A stretch of DNA of 55,739 nucleotides from Escherichia phage vB_EcoS-683R6. A program made the position numbers and the translations under genes. The notes beneath the pieces were generated by a model. It had not been told where the DNA came from, did no database searches, and saw nothing but the letters and a program-made list of their open reading frames with translations. Below are positions 4,497 to 35,349 of this stretch, piece after piece. Where the stretch lies: the sequence record ON470595; one strand, written 5' to 3'. The first letter of the stretch is position 1. Each line of letters opens with the position of its first letter.

Positions 4497-4593
4497 ATAA
4501 AAAAATAGAGTCTGTCGACATCCGCCAGACTCTACAGTACACACAGCAGTGCATCCTCGTCTTAAATCCGGCCTGGGGTCCTGGTGACCGGTG
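4497..4593 (-). ncRNA. mcaS: small RNA McaS (IsrA)
   Basis: Reverse strand matches remembered McaS 3' half (..GCACUGCUGUGUGUACUGUAGAGUCUGGCGGAUGUCGACAGACUCUAUUUUUUUAUG) with intrinsic terminator hairpin plus U-run; lies between abgR and smrA as in K-12. Ends approximate. Confidence 0.55.
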
Positions 4594-11458: not shown

Positions 11459-11580
11459 GCAGGTGAATGCAACGTCAAGCGATGGGCGTTGCGCTCCATA
11501 TTGTCTTACTTCCTTTTTTGAATTACTGCATAGCACAATTGATTCGTACGACGCCGACTTTGATGAGTCGGCTTTTTTTT
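11459..11580 (+). ncRNA. fnrS: FNR-regulated small RNA FnrS
   Basis: Sequence GCAGGTGAATGCAACGTCAAGCGATGGGCGTTGCGCTCCATATTGTC...GCCGACTTTGATGAGTCGGCTTTTTTTT matches remembered FnrS; ends in hairpin plus T8; between zntB and dbpA. Confidence 0.8.
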
Positions 11581-15881: not shown

Positions 15882-16142
15882 TCACGAGGACTGAAGTCTC
15901 TCGCAATTAAAATTTATCAGTTTTACTTTCTGCTCTCTGGAAACGGCTGCTTCTTTTTTACCTGAGAGCATTTTTTCGCATTCTGATTTCGTTAGTTTAG
16001 ATTTTGAATATCTTGTCCAGTTAGTAGGAGTGCCACCTTCCTTTTCAATAGTGGCGGTAATTTTATACATGAACACCTCCATTATTATTTCCAGTGGTTC
16101 GTTTATTCCATCTTTCGAGTGCTTCTTTTTCACTTCCACCAT
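15882..16142 (-). CDS. ydaC: Rac prophage protein YdaC-like (DUF1187)
   Basis: 86-aa ORF containing ..MYKITATIEKEGGTPTNWTRYSKSKLTKSECEKMLSGKKEAAVSREQKVKLINF; true start probably internal. Confidence 0.55.
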   Translation of the reverse strand: MVEVKKKHSKDGINEPLEIIMEVFMYKITATIEKEGGTPTNWTRYSKSKLTKSECEKMLSGKKEAAVSREQKVKLINFNCERLQSS

Positions 16143-22992: not shown

Positions 22993-23004
22993 GCAAAAGT
23001 TTTC

Positions 23005-23862
23005 ATGCTGTTTGTGCTTATTCTAAGCCACCGGGCAGCATCATACGGGGCAATTATGGCCGCATTACCATACATGCAACTGTACATAGCTGATTACCTG
23101 GCTGACACCATGCATTTGTCAGCAGAGGAGCATGGTGCGTATTTGTTGCTGATGTTCAATTACTGGCAAACAGGAAAGCCAATACCTAAAAACAGGCTGG
23201 CAAAAATTGCCCGTCTGACTAACGAGCGATGGGCTGATGTTGAACCATCCTTGCAGGAGTTTTTTTGCGATAACGGCGAGGAATGGGTGCATCTTCGGAT
23301 TGCGGAAGATCTGGCATCAGTCAGGGAAAAATTAACCAAAAAATCAGCCGCAGGAAAAGCATCTGTTCAGGCCAGAAGAAGCAGAAAGGAAGCAGATGTT
23401 CAAACAAAACAAGAGAGAAATTTAACAGGTGTTCAAACAGATGTTGAAGTGGTGTTTGAACATGATGTCAACACAAAGGCAACTAATAAAGATACAGATA
23501 AAGATCTAAAAACAGATCCCCCCCTAAATCCCCCCCGGGGGAATCGAGGTGTCAAAAAGTTTGACCCTCTGGATATTGCTTTGCCGAACTGGATTTCTGT
23601 CTCGCTTTGGCGTGAGTGGGTTGAATTTCGCCAGGCATTGCGAAAACCGATTCGAACGGAGCAGGGCGCTAACGGGGCGATACGGGAGCTGGAAAAATTC
23701 CGCCAGCAGGGTTTTTCACCTGAGCAGGTGATTAGACACAGCATCGCCAATGAATACCAGGGCTTGTTCGCGCCGAAAGGTGTTCGACCTGAGACGTTAC
23801 TCCGACAGGTTAACACCGTCTCGTTACCGGATAGTGCGATCCCGCCAGGCTTCAGGGGGTAA
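23005..23862 (+). CDS. ydaU: replication initiation protein, O-like (YdaU)
   Basis: 285-aa ORF at the lambda O position, followed by a DnaC-like loader gene. Confidence 0.75.
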   Translation: MLFVLILSHRAASYGAIMAALPYMQLYIADYLADTMHLSAEEHGAYLLLMFNYWQTGKPIPKNRLAKIARLTNERWADVEPSLQEFFCDNGEEWVHLRIAEDLASVREKLTKKSAAGKASVQARRSRKEADVQTKQERNLTGVQTDVEVVFEHDVNTKATNKDTDKDLKTDPPLNPPRGNRGVKKFDPLDIALPNWISVSLWREWVEFRQALRKPIRTEQGANGAIRELEKFRQQGFSPEQVIRHSIANEYQGLFAPKGVRPETLLRQVNTVSLPDSAIPPGFRG

Positions 23863-23868
23863 CTGTCC

Positions 23869-24615
23869 ATGAAAAATATTGCGACAGGCGACGTTCTTGA
23901 ACGTATCCGCAGACTGGCCCCGTCACATGTAACCGCGCCATTCAAGACGGTAGCGGAGTGGCGCGAGTGGCAACTTTCCGAAGGCCAGAAACGTTGTGAG
24001 GAGATCAACCGTCAGAATCGTCAGTTGCGGGTGGAAAAAATTCTGAATCGCTCTGGCATCCAGCCATTGCACCGCAAATGCTCGTTTTCGAATTACCAGG
24101 TGCAGAACGAAGCGCAGCGATACGCGTTGAGTCAGGCGAAATCCATCGCTGATGAACTGATGACCGGGTGTACAAATTTTGCGTTCAGCGGAAAACCTGG
24201 TACCGGGAAGAACCACTTAGCGGCAGCTATCGGGAATCGCCTGCTGAAAGACGGTCAGACAGTGATTGTGGTTACCGTGGCTGATGTTATGAGTGCCCTG
24301 CACGCCAGCTATGACGATGGGCAGTCAGGCGAAAAATTTTTGCGGGAACTGTGCGAAGTGGATCTGCTGGTTCTTGATGAAATTGGCATTCAGCGCGAGA
24401 CAAAAAACGAGCAGGTGGTGCTGCACCAGATTGTTGATCGCCGGACAGCGTCGATGCGCAGCGTGGGGATGCTGACAAACCTGAACTATGAGGCCATGAA
24501 AACATTGCTCGGCGAGCGGATTATGGATCGCATGACCATGAACGGCGGACGCTGGGTGAATTTTAACTGGGAGAGCTGGCGTCCGAATGTCGTCCAGCCA
24601 GGAATTGCGAAGTGA
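23869..24615 (+). CDS. ydaV: DnaC/IstB-like AAA+ helicase loader (YdaV)
   Basis: 248-aa ORF; Walker [10 protein letters not shown], Walker B LLVLDEIG. Confidence 0.85.
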
Positions 24616-24637
24616 TTTTTACCGGGAGGAAATTTTA

Positions 24638-25423
24638 ATGGAGACTGTTTTTGACGCACTGAAAGCAATGGGAAAAGCCACGTCGGTAGAACTGGCTGCG
24701 CGACTTGATATCAGTCGTGAAGAGGTACTGAACNNNNNNNNNNNNNNNNNNNNNNNNNAGCTGTGGGAGCTGAAAAAGGCTGGTTTCGTTGATAAAAGCG
24801 TATACACCTGGCGTGTGGCTGATAACAACGTTCAGCAGGAACAGCCAGAGCAGGCAGAACCGCCGGAAGAAACCACCACGGCAACAGTCGCGAAAATTTC
24901 GGAGTGCGATTTAACTGCGACGATTGAACAACGTGGACCACAAACGGCGGATGAGTTGGCTACATGGTTCGGTACCACATCACGCAAAGTGGCTTCAACG
25001 CTGGCAATGGCAATCAGCAAAGGTCGTCTGATTCGCGTTAATCAGAACGGTAAATTTCGTTACTGCATACCGGGCGATAATTTACCAGCAAAGCCGAAAG
25101 CTGCATCGGTAACGGAAACTGATTTTAAAGCCTTTCCTCAGCCAGCAGATGTTGCGTTACCAGTACAGGAAGCTGCAACACAGGAAGATATTAAAACAGA
25201 AACTGTGGCGGACATTGTGCAGTCGCTGCCATCGTTTACTGAAACGCGAGCTGATGACCTGATTTTGCCATCGCTGCATATGGCAAACCGCGAACTGCGT
25301 CGGGCGAAAAATCATGTCCAGAAGTGGGAGCGAGTCTGCGCCGCGCTGCGGGAGCTGAACAAGCACCGGGATATTGTTCGACAGATTGCTGATTCTTCCC
25401 GCCGTGTTGTATCGGAAAAGTGA
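24638..25423 (+). CDS. ydaW: YdaW-like prophage protein (contains a 25-nt N run at 24734-24758)
   Basis: ORF with GGAGG RBS upstream of ATG 24638; N-terminal winged-helix-like region; reading frame appears preserved across the Ns. Confidence 0.6.
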
Positions 25424-25438
25424 TTGCCGGAGGCGCTT

Positions 25439-25870
25439 ATGGCAAAAGTATTTACACAAGAAGAGCGGGAAAAAATTAAAGGGCAGGTTGTTGAGCTAGT
25501 ACGCCGGAGTGGACGCGAGACGTTACGACAACTGGAGGCCAAGACAGGTGCGACAAGATATCTGATGAGCGTTCTCGCCAGAGAGCTGGTTGCCAGTGGC
25601 GATGTATACAACTCTGGTTACGGGTTATTCCCGTCTGAACAGGCTCGTAAGGACTGGCAAAATGCCCGCAAAAAACTATCCAGGGCAAAGGTGAAGAAAC
25701 CATCTGTGGTTGATCCGGACCTTATCTGGTCATTACCAGACGGAGAAATACGCCGCTACGACAGGCGTCTGAACATAATCTGTCGCGAGTGCCGGAAGAG
25801 TGAAGTTATGCAGCGTGTGCTGGCGTTTTATCAGAATGGTTTTCGAGAGAGGCTTGGAGATCAGGGATGA
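25439..25870 (+). CDS. hypothetical prophage protein (basic, about 143 aa)
   Basis: ORF with GGAGG RBS 7 nt upstream of ATG 25439; no recognisable motif. Confidence 0.5.
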   Translation: MAKVFTQEEREKIKGQVVELVRRSGRETLRQLEAKTGATRYLMSVLARELVASGDVYNSGYGLFPSEQARKDWQNARKKLSRAKVKKPSVVDPDLIWSLPDGEIRRYDRRLNIICRECRKSEVMQRVLAFYQNGFRERLGDQG

Positions 25871-26063
25871 ATAGAACGATGAAGGATGGAAGCTACATAT
25901 TCTCGGTACTAAGATTTATTTTTCTGACACAAAATGACCATTTGGCGTTACATAATCCCAAAAAAACGTATCAAAAATCTCAAAATGCGTTACGATTAGA
26001 GAGTATTTTGATTCTGCGTGCTCATTTTTTGATTGCTGTGGCTTTTTGTTGTGGGAGTGTTGA

Positions 26064-27218
26064 ATGGATTATTTATCAGAAGTGTTAAAAATCATTGAAG
26101 GTGCAACAAAGGCAAATGCTTCGATGGCTAGTAATTATGCTGGGTTGCTGGCAGATAAGCTCGAACAAAAAGGGGAGGTCAAGCAAGCCAGAATGATAAG
26201 AGAAAGGTTGCTTAGAGCTCCCCAGGCGTTGGCAGGAGCTCAAAGGGCTGGAGGTGGGATATCTCTGGGCTCATTACCGGTAGATATTGATAGTCGACTC
26301 AACACTGTTGATGTCAGTTATCCTAAATTAGACAGTTCAGAGATTTTTCTGCCTGCAGCAATCAGTACCCGTGTTGAAGAGTTTATCACTAATGTTCAAC
26401 GTTATGATGAGTTTGTTAAAGCTGATGCAGCATTGCCGAGTCGTATGCTCGTGTATGGAAAGCCAGGAACAGGTAAGACTATGTTATCTAAGTACATCGC
26501 TACCCGCTTAGATTTTCCACTTCTTACAGTGCGTTGCGATACTTTGATTAGTAGTTTATTGGGACAAACCAGCAAAAATCTTAGACAGGTTTTCGATTAT
26601 GTAATGCAGAGGCCATCAGTGCTTTTTTTAGACGAATTTGATGCTTTAGCTGGAGCAAGAGGTAATGAGAGAGATATAGGTGAGCTTCAGCGAGTTGTCA
26701 TTTCACTATTGCAGAATATGGATGCGGCATCAGAGGATACGGTAATTATTGCCTCAACTAACCATGAGCAACTTCTGGATCCTGCAATCTGGAGGCGATT
26801 TAGCTTCAGAATTCCAATGCCTCTGCCTGACATACATCAGAGAGAGTTAATTTGGAAAAATCGTTTAAAGAATATGATATGTAGCGATCTAGATTTAAGT
26901 GATTTATCAAGAAAATCGGAAGGATTATCCGGAGCAATAATTGAACAGGTGAGCTTGGATGCACGTAGGGATGCAGTTATTGAAGGTGCAAGTGTGATAA
27001 ATCACCATAAATTGTATAGGCGTTTGTATCTTGCTCAATCGCTTATGGAAGGTGTAAATTTAAGCACTTACGAAGATGAAATTCGTTGGTTACGTTCTAA
27101 AGATAAAAAATTATTTTCTATCAGAGTTCTTGCTAATTTGTACAAACTTACATCAAGAGTAATTTCAAACATTCTGAAGGAGTCAGGAGCATATGAGCAG
27201 AAGGGGTACACAGTTTAG
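26064..27218 (+). CDS. classical-clade AAA+ ATPase (candidate defence-module component)
   Basis: 384 aa; Walker A GKPGTGKT (about 26458-26481), Walker B VLFLDEFD, sensor-1 ASTN, SRH-like DPAIWRRFSF; AT-rich codon usage unlike flanking phage genes. Confidence 0.8.
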   Translation: MDYLSEVLKIIEGATKANASMASNYAGLLADKLEQKGEVKQARMIRERLLRAPQALAGAQRAGGGISLGSLPVDIDSRLNTVDVSYPKLDSSEIFLPAAISTRVEEFITNVQRYDEFVKADAALPSRMLVYGKPGTGKTMLSKYIATRLDFPLLTVRCDTLISSLLGQTSKNLRQVFDYVMQRPSVLFLDEFDALAGARGNERDIGELQRVVISLLQNMDAASEDTVIIASTNHEQLLDPAIWRRFSFRIPMPLPDIHQRELIWKNRLKNMICSDLDLSDLSRKSEGLSGAIIEQVSLDARRDAVIEGASVINHHKLYRRLYLAQSLMEGVNLSTYEDEIRWLRSKDKKLFSIRVLANLYKLTSRVISNILKESGAYEQKGYTV

Positions 27219-29457
27219 TAACGCAAAAGTTACAAACCCAATGTTAAGAATCCCTTTTTCCAGTAGTGACTTGGGTGCAATAGTAAACGCTGGCGGTGGG
27301 GCAAAGGTATTGGTTGATGTAACAGCCGAATATAGACAAGGGCTAGTAAGAAATTTAACAACCAGTAAACATTATTTAGAATCCAAACTTTCAGAGTACC
27401 CTGGAAGCTTGGGTACTTTGGTTTTCAAATTAAGAGACCAGGGAATAGCCAAAACGCATAGGCCGAACAAAATTGCTCAAGAGGCTGGATTGCAAAATGC
27501 CGGTCATGCCAAAATAGATGAAATGTTGGTTGCTGCTCATGCCGGCTGTTTTGACGTATTAGAGTCAGTCATTTTACATCGGAATATTAAAGCGATTTTG
27601 GCTAATCTAAGCGCGATTGAGCGCATTGAACCTTGGGATGAGAATAGGAAGGTTCCAGGAGGCACTGATGGTTTGTTTGAATCATCAAACATCCTTGTAC
27701 GACTATTTGAGTACACAGGTGAAGATGCAACTTACAACAACTATGAAAACGTTATTTCTATATTAGAACAACACGGAGTTAAATATGATGAGATTAGACA
27801 AAAATGTGGTCTTCCCTTATTAAGGATAATGGATTTATCCCCAAATGATAGATATATATTAGACATTCTCATTGATTACCCGGGTATAAGAACGTTAATT
27901 CCTGAACCAAAATATTCAGCATTCCCGGTTAGTGTAAGTGATTCTGTTGGCATTGAAACAAATAGCTTTCCCGTACCATCAGAAGAATTACCCATTGTTG
28001 CTGTATTTGACACTGGGGTAAGCCCCATCGCGGCAACAATTACTCCTTGGGTAGTGAGTAGGGAAACATACGTAATTCCTCCTGATACGAGTTATGAACA
28101 TGGGACTATGGTGTCTTCATTGATATCAGGCGCTCATTTTTTAAATGACAATCATCCATGGATTCCTGATACAAAATCTAAAATCCATGATGTTTGTGCC
28201 TTAGATGAAAATGGATCTTATATATCAGATTTAATTCTGAGGCTAGCAGATGCTGTAAATAAAAGACCAGATATAAAAGTCTGGAATTTGTCTTTGGGAG
28301 GCGGACCATGTAATGAGCAGACGTTTAGTGATTTTGCGATGGAGTTAGATCGGCTCAGCGATAAATTTGGTATTTTGTTTGTAGTTGCTGCAGGTAATTA
28401 TGTAGATGAACCTATACGTACATGGCCAAATCCTGATCCGCTTGGAGGTGCTGATTTAATTTCCTCTCCTGGAGAGTCAGTCCGAGCACTAACAGTTGGT
28501 TCAGTTTCTCATATGGAAGCTAATGATGCTTTAAGTGAAATTGGAACACCGACACCATATACTCGTCGTGGCCCTGGGCCTGTATTTACTCCAAAGCCAG
28601 ATATAATCCATGCTGGCGGTGGGGTTCATAGACCTTGGAATGTAGGAGCAAGCAGTTTAAAGGTCGTAGGGCCAGATAATAGGCTTTGCTCTAATTTTGG
28701 TACTAGTTTTGCTGCTCCAATTGTGGCAAGTTTAGCTGCGCATACATGGCAGAGAATAGCCACTAATACAGACTTTAATGTTTCACCATCATTGATTAAA
28801 GCATTATTAATTCATTCCGCTCAATTATCTTCTCCTGATTACTCGCCAAGTGAAAGACGCTATTTGGGAGCGGGAATTCCTAATGAAGTTATTGAGACCT
28901 TATATGATAGTGATGATAGGTTTACTCTGATTTTCCAAACATTCTTGGTTCCTGGGGTGAGGTGGAGAAAGGATAACTATCCCATACCATCGGCACTTAT
29001 TCAAAATGGAAAATTTAAAGGTGAGATTGTAATTACTGCTGCATATGCACCACCACTGAACCCTAATGCCGGCAGTGAATATGTTCGCGCGAACGTAGAG
29101 CTAAGTTTTGGCTTAATTGAGAATAATACTATAAAAGGAAAAGTGCCTATGGAAGGAGAAAACGGTCAATCTGGATATGAGAGAGCTCAAATTGAGCATG
29201 GTGGAAAGTGGTCACCAGTAAAAATTCATCGCAAGGCATTTAATAAAGGAATTACTTCGGGTAACTGGGCTCTTCAGGCTAAAACAACGTTGAGAGCGAA
29301 TGAACCGGCCTTAATGGAGCCTTTACCTGTAACTATTGTAGTAACTTTAAAATCATTAGATGGAAACACACAAGTTTATGCTGATGGCGTAAGAGCTTTA
29401 AATGCTAATAACTGGGCTCACTATCCATTGCCTGCTCGTGTGCCAGTTTCCGTATAA
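27193..29457 (+). CDS. subtilisin-like (S8 family) serine protease, multi-domain (candidate defence-module effector)
   Basis: 754 aa; catalytic triad in D-H-S order: AVFDTGVS (about 28006-28029), YEHGTMVSS (about 28093-28119), GTSFAAPIVA (about 28699-28728); overlaps the ATPase ORF by 26 nt (alternative ATG at 27238). Confidence 0.8.
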   Translation: MSRRGTQFSNAKVTNPMLRIPFSSSDLGAIVNAGGGAKVLVDVTAEYRQGLVRNLTTSKHYLESKLSEYPGSLGTLVFKLRDQGIAKTHRPNKIAQEAGLQNAGHAKIDEMLVAAHAGCFDVLESVILHRNIKAILANLSAIERIEPWDENRKVPGGTDGLFESSNILVRLFEYTGEDATYNNYENVISILEQHGVKYDEIRQKCGLPLLRIMDLSPNDRYILDILIDYPGIRTLIPEPKYSAFPVSVSDSVGIETNSFPVPSEELPIVAVFDTGVSPIAATITPWVVSRETYVIPPDTSYEHGTMVSSLISGAHFLNDNHPWIPDTKSKIHDVCALDENGSYISDLILRLADAVNKRPDIKVWNLSLGGGPCNEQTFSDFAMELDRLSDKFGILFVVAAGNYVDEPIRTWPNPDPLGGADLISSPGESVRALTVGSVSHMEANDALSEIGTPTPYTRRGPGPVFTPKPDIIHAGGGVHRPWNVGASSLKVVGPDNRLCSNFGTSFAAPIVASLAAHTWQRIATNTDFNVSPSLIKALLIHSAQLSSPDYSPSERRYLGAGIPNEVIETLYDSDDRFTLIFQTFLVPGVRWRKDNYPIPSALIQNGKFKGEIVITAAYAPPLNPNAGSEYVRANVELSFGLIENNTIKGKVPMEGENGQSGYERAQIEHGGKWSPVKIHRKAFNKGITSGNWALQAKTTLRANEPALMEPLPVTIVVTLKSLDGNTQVYADGVRALNANNWAHYPLPARVPVSV

Positions 29458-29471
29458 CAACTATATAAATC

Positions 29472-29500
29472 AAACCCGCTGTAGCGGGTTTGATTTATTT
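29472..29500 (+). terminator. intrinsic terminator immediately after the protease gene
   Basis: AAACCCGC-TGTA-GCGGGTTT hairpin followed by GATTTATTTG. Confidence 0.7.
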
Positions 29501-29870
29501 GTGGGTGTGTTTTATAAAAATACCGCCCATACACAACAAAATACAAAAAGTATTATAGATAAAAAAGGAACGTAATGTGCAGATTTGTTGTTTTCCATAT
29601 TTACTCACCTTAATATGATTAACCCTGATAGGGTTGTTATTTCAGCGGTTTTCAAATGAGATATTATGGTGATCTGGCAGATTTGCATAACATTAAAATT
29701 TAATTTGTTTAACCGCTTTTAATAATAAGCGTTGTTTGTATCCCAGCAATCTGTTTTTTGGTTTTTATTCCATTAAGGTGGGGCTTTACACTGGAGCCAG
29801 TTTATTTATACTTCATACGTCAGCCTGAACAACTGGCATCTGCTGCGCTGCGCCATCGAGAGATTAAGAA

Positions 29871-30470
29871 ATGGCGCATATACAACTGGTCAAACAAACC
29901 TCTTCCGGATTACTTCTCCCGGCGACGCCGGAGAGTTGTGATTTTCTGCATCAAATCAAAATAGGCGAGTGGATACACGCAGACTTTAAGCGTGTGCGTA
30001 ACTACGCATTCCACAAGCGTTTTTTCAAACTCCTGCAACTGGGATTCGATTACTGGACTCCGGTCGGTGGGGCGATCACGCCTCGCGAACGAGAACTGCT
30101 GTCTGGTTTCGTTGATTACCTGTGCGAATCAGTTGGTCGGGAACACACGCCAGCCCTGAGTGATGCCGCAGAGCAATATCTGAATACAGTTGCGACACGC
30201 AGAACCCGGGATACGGCATTGCTAAAGTCGTTTGAGGCTTTTCGCGAGTGGGTAACCATTCAGGCTGGATTTTACACCGAACATTTTTATCCGGACGGTA
30301 GCCGCGGGCGTCGGGCAAAATCTATCGCTTTTGCGAATATGGACGAAACCGAGTTTCAGCAGGTTTATAAATCTGTTCTGAATGTGCTGTGGAACTGGAT
30401 TCTGTTCCGTAAATTTTCCTCTCCGGAACAAGTCGAAAATGTGGCCGCGCAGCTGCTGGAGTTTGCGTAA
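29871..30470 (+). CDS. nin-region phage protein (DUF1367-like; identity uncertain)
   Basis: 199-aa ORF upstream of a YbcO-like gene, at the lambdoid nin position. Confidence 0.5.
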   Translation: MAHIQLVKQTSSGLLLPATPESCDFLHQIKIGEWIHADFKRVRNYAFHKRFFKLLQLGFDYWTPVGGAITPRERELLSGFVDYLCESVGREHTPALSDAAEQYLNTVATRRTRDTALLKSFEAFREWVTIQAGFYTEHFYPDGSRGRRAKSIAFANMDETEFQQVYKSVLNVLWNWILFRKFSSPEQVENVAAQLLEFA

Positions 30471-30760
30471 TGGTGGATTTACGTAAAGCGGCGCGGGGGC
30501 GGATGTGCACCGTCAGAATTCTTGGCTACTGCAATCACGATCCGGAAACGTCTGTGCTGGCGCATTACCGACTGGCGGGAACGTGCGGAACAGCGACAAA
30601 ACCACACGATATGCAGGCGGCGATTGCCTGTAGCTCATGCCACGATTTAATCGACGGGCGGGTAAAAACAAGCGATTACACCAAAGAAGATTTACGCCTG
30701 ATGCATGCAGAAGGTGTTTTTCGCACGCAAGAAATCTGGAGAAAGGAAGGTTATTTATGA
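30470..30760 (+). CDS. YbcO-like putative nuclease (DUF1364)
   Basis: 96-aa ORF MVDLRKAARGRMCTVRILGYCNHDPETSVLAHYRLAG..CSSCHD, resembling DLP12 YbcO; Cys/His cluster. Confidence 0.65.
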   Translation: MVDLRKAARGRMCTVRILGYCNHDPETSVLAHYRLAGTCGTATKPHDMQAAIACSSCHDLIDGRVKTSDYTKEDLRLMHAEGVFRTQEIWRKEGYL

Positions 30761-31299
30761 TTTACCCAACAAATACAGGCAAAAGCGGGGAACACCTTCG
30801 TCTCACCACGCTGGAAAGTGTCTGGATTCAGGGAAAACTGCGCATGTGGGGGCGCTGGTCGTATATTGGCGGCGGTAAGACGGGGAATATGTTCAACCAG
30901 TTGTTGGCCTCTAAAAAGCTGACAAAAACGGCAATTAACGAGGCGCTCCGGAGGATGAAAAAAGCAGGTCTGAACAAGTCTGAACTTGAGGCTTTTTTGC
31001 GGGATATGATTAACGGTAAGCAAAAGAGCTGGCTGGCGCATTGTACTGATGCAGAGGCGTTATGTATTGATCGGGTCATAAGTGAGGTGCTGGCAGAGCA
31101 TCCAGGATTGATTAGCGTCCTTCGGCAACGGTATGAGGGGCGGGGGATGACCAAACGCAAAATGGCTGAATTGCTAAATGATGCACACCCAGAGTGGTGT
31201 TTTAGCACATGCGAAAAGCGAATTGCTAATTGGTTGGCCGTTGCTGAGTATGCGCTATACATTCCCATGCGAGAATCATTCGCTCAAAAAACGGCTTGA
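30757..31299 (+). CDS. putative late-gene antiterminator (Q-position protein)
   Basis: 180-aa ORF overlapping the upstream stop; last gene before an AT-rich region, tRNAs and the lysis cassette; assignment is positional. Confidence 0.45.
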   Translation: MIYPTNTGKSGEHLRLTTLESVWIQGKLRMWGRWSYIGGGKTGNMFNQLLASKKLTKTAINEALRRMKKAGLNKSELEAFLRDMINGKQKSWLAHCTDAEALCIDRVISEVLAEHPGLISVLRQRYEGRGMTKRKMAELLNDAHPEWCFSTCEKRIANWLAVAEYALYIPMRESFAQKTA

Positions 31300-31652: not shown

Positions 31653-31728
<76 letters not shown>

Positions 31729-31731
31729 TAT

Positions 31732-31806
<75 letters not shown>

Positions 31807-33891: not shown

Positions 33892-35349
33892 ATGAATACA
33901 TCTCATGTAAGAGTTGTTACTCATATGTGTGGGTTCCTGGTTTGGCTCTATAGTCTTTCAATGTTGCCACCAATGGTTGTAGCATTGTTTTATAAAGAAA
34001 AAAGCCTGTTCGTTTTCTTTATAACTTTCGTTATATTTTTTTGCATTGGTGGCGGAGCGTGGTATACAACTAAGAAATCTGGCATTCAATTACGTACCCG
34101 TGATGGGTTTATTATAATTGTAATGTTTTGGATTTTGTTTTCTGTTATTAGTGCATTCCCTTTATGGATTGACTCAGAACTTAATTTAACGTTCATTGAT
34201 GCTCTGTTTGAAGGGGTTTCTGGAATAACAACAACAGGAGCAACTGTAATTGATGATGTTAGTTCATTACCTCGGGCATATTTGTACTATCGGTCACAGT
34301 TAAATTTTATAGGTGGTTTAGGAGTTATTGTTCTGGCGGTTGCTGTATTGCCATTATTGGGTATTGGTGGTGCAAAGCTTTATCAGTCAGAAATGCCGGG
34401 GCCATTTAAGGATGACAAACTCACTCCCCGCCTGGCCGATACGTCACGGACACTGTGGATAACTTATTCTTTATTAGGTATTGCTTGTATTGTCTGTTAT
34501 AGACTTGCAGGAATGCCTTTGTTTGATGCTATTTGTCACGGGATTTCCACAGTTTCGCTTGGTGGTTTCTCAACTCATAGCGAGAGTATCGGATATTTTA
34601 ATAACTATTTGGTTGAGCTGGTGGCTGGTTCTTTTTCCCTGCTATCGGCTTTCAACTTCACTCTTTGGTATATTGTTATTAGCAGGAAAACGATAAAACC
34701 TTTAATCAGAGATATTGAACTTCGTTTCTTTCTGTTAATAGCCTTAGGGGTGATCATTGTTACCTCTTTCCAGGTCTGGCATATAGGTATGTATGACTTG
34801 CATGGAAGTTTTATTCATTCGTTTTTTCTTGCCAGCTCCATGCTCACTGATAATGGTTTAGCTACGCAGGATTATGCAAGTTGGCCCACGCACACGATAG
34901 TGTTTTTGCTGTTGTCAAGTTTCTTTGGGGGATGTATAGGTTCAACTTGTGGTGGAATTAAGTCACTTCGATTTCTTATACTTTTCAAACAAAGCAAACA
35001 CGAGATAAATCAGCTTTCTCATCCCAGAGCGTTGTTGAGTGTAAATGTAGGAGGGAAGATAGTTACAGATCGTGTAATGAGGTCTGTATGGAGTTTCTTT
35101 TTTCTTTATACTCTCTTCACGGTGTTTTTTATACTGGTGTTAAATGGTATGGGATATGATTTTCTTACATCATTTGCAACAGTGGCTGCATGTATTAATA
35201 ATATGGGATTAGGTTTTGGGGCTACTGCATCGTCATTCGGAGTGCTTAATGACATTGCAAAATGTTTAATGTGCATAGCTATGATTCTTGGTCGCCTTGA
35301 AATTTATCCTGTTATTATATTGTTTTCAGGTTTTTTTTGGCGCTCCTAA
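33892..35349 (+). CDS. trkG: potassium uptake protein TrkG (TrkH family)
   Basis: MNTSHVRVVTHMCGFLVWLYSLSMLPPMVVALFYKEKSLFVFF... matches remembered TrkG; very AT-rich. Confidence 0.9.
   Translation: MNTSHVRVVTHMCGFLVWLYSLSMLPPMVVALFYKEKSLFVFFITFVIFFCIGGGAWYTTKKSGIQLRTRDGFIIIVMFWILFSVISAFPLWIDSELNLTFIDALFEGVSGITTTGATVIDDVSSLPRAYLYYRSQLNFIGGLGVIVLAVAVLPLLGIGGAKLYQSEMPGPFKDDKLTPRLADTSRTLWITYSLLGIACIVCYRLAGMPLFDAICHGISTVSLGGFSTHSESIGYFNNYLVELVAGSFSLLSAFNFTLWYIVISRKTIKPLIRDIELRFFLLIALGVIIVTSFQVWHIGMYDLHGSFIHSFFLASSMLTDNGLATQDYASWPTHTIVFLLLSSFFGGCIGSTCGGIKSLRFLILFKQSKHEINQLSHPRALLSVNVGGKIVTDRVMRSVWSFFFLYTLFTVFFILVLNGMGYDFLTSFATVAACINNMGLGFGATASSFGVLNDIAKCLMCIAMILGRLEIYPVIILFSGFFWRS

Follow-up and report, generated by a model that had tools for sequence, protein, structure and literature searches.

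Genes and features of the locus

The window analyzed here is the whole stretch of 55,739 nucleotides (ON470595). The element carrying the locus is a Rac-type lambdoid prophage integrated at ttcA in E. coli. The locus occupies the slot between the replication genes (ydaU, ydaV, DUF1627, and lygF) and the nin/Q-like genes (DUF1367, DUF1364, and DUF1133). Its features are as follows.

25439–25870, plus strand: DUF977/lygF gene (Pfam DUF977, 2e-28; RefSeq), the last backbone gene before the insert
25835–25941, plus strand: left junction segment, seen in the E. coli cassette only, comprising the replaced lygF tail and the leader start
25942–26063, plus strand: travelling part of the leader, with the candidate promoter and the 5' UTR
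25960–25996, plus strand: conserved leader core, candidate ietAS promoter (A-tract, -35-like hexamer, 17-nt spacer, -10-like hexamer)
26064–27218, plus strand: ietA (iteA), AAA+ ATPase of 384 aa, the antitoxin partner according to the literature
27193–29457, plus strand: ietS (iteS), S8 subtilase of 754 aa, the toxin/effector according to the literature
29465–29498, plus strand: intrinsic-terminator hairpin with a U-rich tail, the cassette end and right-hand recombination junction
29473–29848, plus strand: AT-rich non-coding backbone module outside the insert, which follows hok in ietAS-less prophages

ietA lies directly upstream of ietS on the same strand with a 26-nt overlap, and every homologous locus examined has this layout. 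Upstream of ietA there is a gap of 193 bp (25871–26063), and ietS is followed by one of 413 bp (29458–29870), or about 370 bp from the hairpin end. Neighboring phage genes are spaced by 15, -1, and -4 bp. The GC content is 0.352 in the leader, 0.400 in ietA, 0.402 in ietS, and 0.349 in the trailer, while it is 0.48–0.53 in the flanking genes. GC3 is 0.32 in ietA and 0.27 in ietS, compared with 0.46–0.61 in the flanking genes. The region 25835–29472 has a GC content of 0.40; only 1.2% of the 3,638-bp windows in the 55.7-kb sequence are equally AT-rich, and at this window size the GC minimum of the sequence falls within the ietA-ietS pair. Homologous cassettes are also AT-rich relative to their flanks in the three loci with adequate flanking sequence (L025, L026, and L028); in L007 this holds for the left flank. 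These values agree with an earlier reading made from the sequence alone (the sequence-only reading), which had described an AT-rich pair between flanks of higher GC content and tighter packing.

Identity of the pair

The two proteins match PADLOC IetA (8.9e-143) and PADLOC IetS (8.3e-301). Against the NCBIfam equivalog models, IetA scores 526.6 bits with IteA (NF042959; cut-off 510) over residues 1–367 of the 367-position model, and IetS scores 1043.4 bits with IteS (NF042956; cut-off 900), with model positions 1–747 covered. RefSeq gives the names iteA and iteS to these proteins in an E. coli genome that is 100% identical over 25000–30600. The Asp-His-Ser triad of IetS (D273, H303, and S505) and the oxyanion residue N402 are invariant across 62 homologues. 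In the translation of IetA, Walker A (G132–T139, GKPGTGKT), Walker B (D190–E191, LFLDEF), and the arginine fingers (R244–R245, WRRF) can be read. PDB sequence searches found no solved structure for IetA or IetS, and tblastn of IetS against phages gave two matches only, with 26% identity.

As judged from protein sequence, the ATPase-protease pair is a system described before, the IetAS (IteAS) toxin-antitoxin/anti-phage system. As an anti-phage system, IetAS is credited to Gao et al. 2020. An earlier study took E. coli ietAS from ECOR52 for cloning and pointed out its prophage location (10.1101/2022.08.21.504612). The sequence-only reading had left the pair unnamed; its known name is IetAS/IteAS. 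The finding is real but ordinary, and it has little weight as a discovery: the system was named, its families were modelled in NCBIfam and PADLOC, the genes were annotated in RefSeq, and the location in E. coli prophages was in the literature, all before this analysis.

Junctions of the insert

Alignment with relatives lacking the insert defines both junctions. Homology to five related prophages ends at 25834, and the final 12 codons of lygF (25835–25870) are unlike those of all ietAS-less relatives. The left break is between 25834 and 25835, inside the 3' end of lygF, and not at its stop codon, where the sequence-only reading had placed it. Homology to ietAS-less prophages restarts at 29473, within the hairpin, as the hok terminator. 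The insert therefore corresponds to about 25835–29490 rather than 25871–29870, and the former right boundary at 29870 is wrong. The approximately 370 bp after the protease gene are AT-rich and non-coding, as had been stated, and no CDS is annotated there in three genomes. From the hairpin on, however, roughly 375 bp (29473–29848) are prophage backbone and not part of the insert, being 86–94% identical to the DNA downstream of hok in two related prophages (L005 and L006). A strong promoter-like site at 29785–29812 (TTTACA-16-TATACT) has the top plus-strand PWM score in the window.

Related prophages (L002–L006) contain other cargo and hok in the same slot. In the five ietAS-less relatives examined, the slot ends with hok. 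In the ietAS version hok is absent, and the DNA from the hok terminator onward is kept.

Leader and terminator

The hairpin at 29465–29498 has a 15-bp stem and a 4-nt loop (-26 kcal/mol; z = -6.35 against shuffles). The sequence AACCCGC-N4-GCGGGTT has a single occurrence in the window, where chance would give 0.01. In six contexts a conserved hairpin follows ietS, and the Morganella copy shows a C-G pair changed to U-A, which is compensatory. The protease gene is followed by its own hairpin and T-tract terminator, which recurs with ietAS.

The leader was compared among six cassettes (E. coli, Citrobacter, Klebsiella, Morganella, and two IMG/VR prophage contigs), the coding DNA of which is 69–81% identical. 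The segment 25835–25941 has no match in ietAS-less relatives or in the Citrobacter, Klebsiella, and Morganella cassettes, and only 8% of its columns are invariant. Homology to the Citrobacter cassette begins at 25942, and that to L026 and L028 begins at 25959. The core consists of a UP-element-like A-tract (25960–25966), GTATCA (25968–25973), 17 nt, and TACGAT (25991–25996). In its 30-nt part (25967–25996), 22 of the 30 positions are invariant in the six cassettes, which is in the top 3% of 30-nt windows. The promoter geometry is kept in all six: A-tract, hexamer, 17 nt, and TAC(G/A)AT, with T1, A2, A5, and T6 invariant. In IMG/VR, the leader motif is confined to contigs with ietA. Since the leader core and the hairpin are common to six diverged cassettes, both travel with ietAS, and the leader was rightly assigned to the cassette, its 30-nt core recurring with ietAS across genera and genomic contexts. 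In the Salmonella cassette, whose IetS is 54% identical, an A-tract, GCTACA, 17 nt, and TACAAT are visible by eye; a search of this locus for the leader motif with up to 3 mismatches did not find it. The leader of the Pseudomonas cassette has no convincing relation to the leader core.

Promoter prediction in 25871–26063 by two sigma-70 scans, one based on the consensus and the other on a PWM, found no good promoter, and what the leader offers is a conserved weak candidate. Its PWM score is in the top 0.3% of positions, and the candidate is considered weak because this score is only 3.97. Independent transcription of ietAS, which the sequence-only reading had expected, is plausible, and both the ietAS promoter and expression in the lysogen are putative. 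The core at 25967–25996 may be a dedicated control element travelling with ietAS across Enterobacterales. It may be a UP-element-dependent weak promoter that doubles as an autoregulatory or infection-responsive operator.

The 193 bp before ietA are non-coding as well as AT-rich, in agreement with the earlier description. A 73-aa ORF across the leader (25867–26088) has no match in Pfam, NCBIfam, or PADLOC and is missing from RefSeq; its first half is unconserved, and in other cassettes indels interrupt the frame. It was therefore rejected as a gene. An Rfam search of the whole window at gathering thresholds assigned neither the leader nor the trailer to any RNA family, and a search of 25700–30000 at E-values up to 1 gave only sub-threshold NrrF and Leu-leader matches, on the hairpin. 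The folded putative 5' UTR is not unusual in structure (z -0.24).

Distribution

Of 5,426 complete E. coli genomes, 78 have the pair and about 4,670 have its flanks. All 78 copies are single-copy, chromosomal, and at least 99.6% identical, and this identity points to a single acquisition in recent times. In E. coli the pair always has one lygF allele and one downstream module as its neighbors. Citrobacter, Klebsiella, and two IMG/VR contigs have copies with 69–81% identity, placed behind the replication genes of lambdoid prophages of other kinds. The Morganella cassette lies between icd and a prophage integrase, the Salmonella cassette adjoins proA, and the Pseudomonas cassette is in a defence-island-like context. 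Megablast searches with the insert gave no match in plasmids and no record carrying the insert among deposited phage genomes, and a scan of genome contigs added one locus only.

The pair is not a core gene pair conserved in all related prophages. The deviant GC and GC3, the rarity of the pair compared with its flanks, and the presence of other genes in the slot of relatives indicate that it is accessory, horizontally acquired cargo, as the sequence-only reading had proposed. The diverged copies in other genera and contexts show that the cassette moves as a unit.

Origin and function of the cassette

The best explanation of the locus as a whole, in which we have high confidence, is an IetAS cassette that is swapped-in cargo of a Rac-type lambdoid prophage slot in E. 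coli. The mobile unit is about 25942–29498, comprising the leader core, a UTR of about 60 nt, ietA, ietS, and the hairpin terminator, with ietS translationally coupled to ietA via the overlap. It arrived by recombination and replaced the usual small genes of the slot and the hok toxin gene. The left crossover is placed in the last lygF codons, and the right crossover in the terminator hairpin, the stem of which is almost identical to that of the hok terminator of related prophages. The likeness between the ietAS and hok stems could be a coincidence between two common terminators, in which case it would not mark the crossover. Homologous exchange has since carried the block 23826–29848 into two or more lambdoid backbones, namely Rac-type and Qin/DicB-type.

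It can be speculated that the near-identical stems after ietS and hok (AACCCGC-N4-GCGGGTT) may serve as crossover points for cargo swapping. If this is true, the post-replication slot would be a hotspot of defence and toxin-antitoxin genes with a recognizable junction signature. The literature searched contains no description of the Rac/Qin post-replication slot as a defence hotspot. Taken together, the reading of the leader core as a control element and that of the terminator stems as crossover points are tentative and rather doubtful.

Studies of homologues assign the toxin role to IetS and the antitoxin role to IetA, with no anti-phage mechanism established so far (PMC13069673; PMC8562856). 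Defence by ietHAS requires protease activity (PMC13069673). The ietAS of B. cereus acts by abortive infection, triggered by the SPbeta protein YosG, and was functional when cloned with its native promoter (10.1101/2022.08.27.505566). ECOR52 ietAS, an allele that may differ from that of the window, alone gave limited protection against a 29-phage panel and showed synergy with Zorya II (10.1101/2022.08.21.504612).

For the E. coli pair, a weak constitutive promoter would provide low ietAS expression in the lysogen. IetA would keep IetS, a cytoplasmic subtilisin-like protease, inactive. A phage protein produced on infection would lift the restraint, and the freed IetS would cleave cellular or phage proteins, such that the infected cell halts growth before progeny release. 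The same toxin-antitoxin logic would also punish prophage loss. In E. coli, H-NS often silences foreign DNA that is AT-rich, and expression of ietAS in the lysogen is therefore not assured. As no terminator-like site separates lygF from ietA, transcription of the early-right operon could read into the pair.

This last point, together with the co-orientation of the pair with ydaS-lygF and the lack of a good sigma-70 match in the leader, would fit ietAS having no promoter of its own and being expressed by read-through only after induction, with the leader core being an operator or an RNA element. Such a situation is improbable, because the promoter geometry is kept in six cassettes, with a better -10 (TACAAT) in Salmonella, and because the cassettes of Morganella and Salmonella are outside phage operons. 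Besides, a toxin-antitoxin or defence module silent in the lysogen would protect nothing, and the B. cereus homologue worked with its native promoter (10.1101/2022.08.27.505566). Far less credible, to the point of being negligible, is that AT-richness does not mark an insertion and that the pair is an old core component whose composition reflects functional constraint. The constant association with one lygF allele and one downstream module within E. coli is compatible with it; it is refuted by the presence of the pair in only 78 of about 4,670 flank-bearing genomes and by the sharp homology breaks at 25834 and 29473. The near-identity of these copies and the diverged copies in unrelated contexts also speak against it.

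The pair might also be mainly an addiction module that stabilizes the prophage by post-segregational killing in place of a hok/sok-type system, with defence being secondary. This is unlikely, though less so than read-through. The earliest description of IetAS, as cited in PMC13069673 and PMC8562856, is of a toxin-antitoxin system for plasmid stability on pTiC58, ietAS occupies a slot that ends in hok in the five relatives, and the protection by E. coli ietAS alone was limited (10.1101/2022.08.21.504612). On the other hand, IetAS homologues protect against phages via abortive infection (10.1101/2022.08.21.504612; 10.1101/2022.08.27.505566), and a chromosomal prophage is seldom lost by segregation. 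Both roles could be combined, and the analysis does not tell them apart.

The precise cassette limits (about 25942–29498) help to clone the E. coli system with its native control regions, and a conserved candidate promoter is now at hand for testing. ietAS displaced hok in a variable slot common to Rac- and Qin-type prophages, and this slot could be mined for more cargo.

Comparison with known systems

Lambdoid morons and the cargo of prophage hotspots (P2/P4, PMC9122126; BstA, PMC8585504) likewise have deviant composition and occupy a fixed variable slot. The likeness to morons includes flanking by conserved phage genes and an own terminator; an own promoter would be a further shared trait. 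The slot of the window, by contrast, is at the post-replication (ren/nin) position of Rac/Qin-type prophages. The hok/sok type I loci of Rac/Qin-like prophages are located at the right end of the same slot, and their stem AACCCGC/GCGGGTT matches the one after ietS. They encode a small membrane toxin and an antisense RNA without protein homology to IetAS, and the hok CDS is absent from the slot in the window.

TA132/133 of Mycoplasma (AAA-ATPase/subtilisin-like) has the same two-gene architecture, and is likened to the pair by architecture alone (PMC8562856). Its ATPase gene is dispensable without the protease gene and essential with it, and toxicity was neutralized in E. coli (PMC8562856). It is chromosomal in Mollicutes and without phage context. 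ietHAS (Liu-DS4) shares the IetA/IetS core and is a three-gene variant with an SNF2 helicase (PMC13069673), while the pair in the window has no adjacent helicase gene, its neighbors being lygF upstream and DUF1367 downstream.

IetA/IetS of Agrobacterium pTiC58 is likewise an AAA+ antitoxin and an S8 toxin that stabilize a mobile element (Yamamoto et al. 2009, as cited in PMC13069673 and PMC8562856). That system is a plasmid-borne, distant relative, while the pair here is prophage-borne. The S8 proteins of Agrobacterium/Rhizobium plasmids are approximately 27% identical to IetS over residues 260–736 only, and the N-terminal 260 aa are missing. With IetAS/IteAS (Gao et al. 2020), gene order, overlap, and catalytic residues agree, and there is no difference at the protein level. 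To that system the present analysis adds the anatomy of the cassette, with its conserved leader core and terminator, both of its junctions in the Rac-type prophage, and hok as the gene that it replaced.

The IetAS Pair and Its Prophage

The ATPase-protease pair is the known, already annotated IetAS defence system. Pfam matches in the pair are AAA and Peptidase_S8 domains, and PADLOC assigns IetA (8.9e-143) and IetS (8.3e-301). Both proteins match NCBIfam equivalogs over the full length, IteA with 526.6 bits (cut-off 510) and IteS with 1043 bits (cut-off 900). E. coli strain 144 (NZ_CP023364) is 100% identical over 25000–30600 of the window, and RefSeq already names the two genes there iteA and iteS. 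The following features are referred to below.

26064–27218: ietA, 384 aa
27193–29457: ietS, 754 aa, overlapping ietA by 26 nt
25871–26063: leader, 193 bp, GC 0.352
29465–29498: hairpin after ietS, 15-bp stem, 4-nt loop and U-rich tail
29473–29848: backbone module, GC 0.348
30757–31299: Q-like antiterminator gene (DUF1133)
31653–31728: tRNA-Thr (tgt)
31732–31806: tRNA-Gly (tcc)
33892–35349: trkG, potassium transporter gene
15886–16064: RalA antitoxin RNA adjoining ralR in the prophage (Rfam)
11459–11576: host sRNA FnrS, outside the prophage (Rfam)
4497–4592, minus strand: host sRNA McaS, outside the prophage (Rfam)

The window runs from abgT through ttcA into a complete-looking Rac-type lambdoid prophage. 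This carries intR, xisR, ralR, recT, recE, kilR, racR, ydaS, ydaT, ydaU and ydaV, followed by lysis genes, trkG and genes of the head and tail. The two tRNA genes are inside the prophage, shortly after the Q-like antiterminator gene. With trkG, the prophage has a second region of AT-rich cargo; over the 5' third of this gene GC falls to 0.32 in 400-bp windows, as measured up to 34999. A 24-nt indel separates the window from strain 144 left of about 24640 (region ~23000–24640), and ydaV is at 23869–24615 in the window and at 23893–24639 when mapped from the RefSeq record of strain 144. In strain 144 RefSeq describes ydaU as frameshifted; in the window it is an intact ORF of 285 aa (23005–23862).

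Insertion and Its Junctions

Among 5,426 complete E. coli genomes, the flanks match in about 4,670 and the pair is present in only 78, so the pair is not a conserved core component of these prophages. All 78 carriers have one chromosomal copy, with identity of at least 99.6%. It was not found in plasmids or in deposited phage genomes.

In five related prophages without ietAS, the slot between lygF (DUF977), the last backbone gene before the insert, and the nin-like genes is occupied by other genes. These are a KilA-N protein, an HTH protein, a trio of DUF262 protein, AAA ATPase and hypothetical protein, and several small ORFs. In all five, a hok gene closes the slot on the right. The trio fills the slot in L005 1–2144 (NZ_CM135829.1, a record labelled DH5alpha), and it looks like another defence-type cargo set.

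Alignment to these relatives placed the junctions. Homology to all five ends at 25834, 36 nt before the stop codon of lygF, and resumes at 29473, 29511, 29848 or 29871, depending on the relative. In two of them (L005 and L006), the stretch 29473–29848 comes after hok and begins with the hok terminator, AACCCGC-TTCG-GCGGGTT. This makes the AT-rich trailer a backbone module in its own right, outside the insert. The sequence-only reading of the pair as acquired cargo with a leader and terminator of its own is largely right, except that its right boundary at 29870 took in this module and that independent transcription is only probable. The insert proper spans about 25835–29490. Compared with the relatives, the ietAS version (25835–29472) has lost hok but retained the DNA that starts at the hok terminator, indicating that one toxin-antitoxin module replaced another.

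Within E. coli, two backbones contain the block 23826–29848, which consists of ydaV, DUF1627, lygF, ietAS and the backbone module. One is Rac-type (recET, kilR, DUF1367/1364/1133 genes and trkG), and the other is Qin/DicB-type (dicB, ydfC, DUF968, RusA and Q). Such mosaic exchange is usual among lambdoid prophages.

Composition, Leader and Terminator

The pair had also been described as AT-rich and more loosely packed than its neighbours, and computation bears this out. GC is 0.40 for both genes, with GC3 of 0.32 (ietA) and 0.27 (ietS), against GC of 0.48–0.53 and GC3 of 0.46–0.61 in the flanking phage genes. Just 1.2% of windows of the same length reach or exceed this AT content, and the GC minimum falls within the pair. 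The flanking phage genes are spaced by 15, −1 and −4 bp, and the gap between ietS and the DUF1367 gene (from 29871) is 413 bp with GC 0.349. Leader and trailer are non-coding, as proposed. The sole ORF across the leader, of 73 aa, has no family match, is unannotated and is not conserved. The hairpin noted after ietS is confirmed and folds at −26 kcal/mol (z = −6.35).

Diverged copies of ietAS, with 69–81% nucleotide identity, are seen in a Citrobacter MAG, in three IMG/VR prophage contigs (L025, L026 and L028), in Klebsiella and in Morganella. In Citrobacter, Klebsiella and IMG/VR, lambdoid prophages with differing replication modules have the cassette after their replication genes. In Morganella it is flanked by icd and a prophage integrase. 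In Salmonella a copy (IetS 54% identical) adjoins proA, and the neighbours of a Pseudomonas copy are other defence-like genes. Cassette GC in the three IMG/VR contigs (0.41–0.42) is under that of both flanks (0.47–0.54); in another diverged locus, L007, it is under the left flank only, the 456-bp right flank being about equal (0.425). A dinI-like gene follows ietAS in Citrobacter, Klebsiella and one IMG/VR prophage (L007 8330–8615, L025 8750–8983 and L053 8497–8658), and that of L007 has a perfect LexA-box-like palindrome, TACTGTATAAATATACAGTA, upstream.

A leader core, CGTATCAAnAAT...AT(G/C)CGTTACGAT, at 25967–25996 of the window, is common to six cassettes. Its invariant positions are 22 of 30, versus 52–56% of columns in coding DNA and only 8% and 17% in the leader around it. 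Among 2.9 million IMG/VR contigs, the motif is confined to those with ietA. Five of the six cassettes have the hairpin AAACCCGC-N4-GCGGGTTT after ietS, and in Morganella it is preserved by a compensatory change, CCCGT/ACGGG. This conservation indicates that leader core and hairpin both belong to the mobile unit, in agreement with the initial proposal.

Candidate Promoters

A consensus promoter scan of the leader found none. The conserved candidate, GTATCA and TACGAT separated by 17 nt, ranks only in the top 0.3% of positions in a position-weight scan. T1, A2, A5 and T6 of its −10-like hexamer are invariant, the 17-nt spacing is retained, and an A-tract is placed where an UP element is expected. 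This geometry recurs in the distant Salmonella cassette, where the hexamer is a better one, TACAAT. The cassette also occurs outside phage operons. Taken together, ietAS probably has its own, weak promoter here.

The backbone module is AT-rich, non-coding and conserved, and comes after hok in prophages without ietAS. The best sigma-70-like site on the plus strand of the whole window, TTTACA-16-TATACT, is located in it at 29785–29812, 59 bp before the DUF1367 gene. It might allow transcription to resume past the terminator, into the nin/Q-like genes. On the minus strand, a promoter-like TGCACA-18-TATAAT (29581 to 29552) is directed at the hairpin (29498–29465); an RNA of ~85 nt, antisense to the first part of the module, could arise from it. 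Rfam gave nothing significant for 29581–29465 on the minus strand, the best match being NrrF (E = 0.05, well under the gathering score).

Comparison with Known IetAS Systems

D273, H303, N402 and S505 of IetS are invariant in 62 homologues (50–84% identical). The predicted structure of IetS (pLDDT 86, pTM 0.89) consists of N-terminal beta-alpha-beta-beta-alpha-beta modules (~residues 74–147 and 167–237), the S8 domain and a C-terminal beta-sandwich. IetA has Walker A (G132–T139), Walker B (D190–E191), sensor N233 and R244–R245. By our own reading, its pore-loop position is L-L-G instead of aromatic-hydrophobic-Gly. Its nearest solved relatives are p97/Cdc48 D2 domains.

IetS is probably a latent cytoplasmic protease restrained by an IetA hexamer. 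A phage protein would upset this restraint, and proteolysis would then arrest the infected cell. The overlap of ietA and ietS would maintain the antitoxin supply, and the terminator would keep cassette transcription in the lysogen out of the downstream nin/Q-like genes.

In published work IetS acts as the toxin and IetA as its antitoxin, an ietA mutant being unobtainable with ietS present (PMC13069673; PMC8562856). Defence requires protease activity, and the anti-phage mechanism "remains unknown" (PMC13069673; PMC8562856). E. coli ietAS gives weak protection alone and synergy with Zorya II, and its prophage location has been noted (10.1101/2022.08.21.504612). For a homologue from B. cereus, the mode of action is abortive infection, and one SPbeta protein, YosG, activates it (10.1101/2022.08.27.505566).
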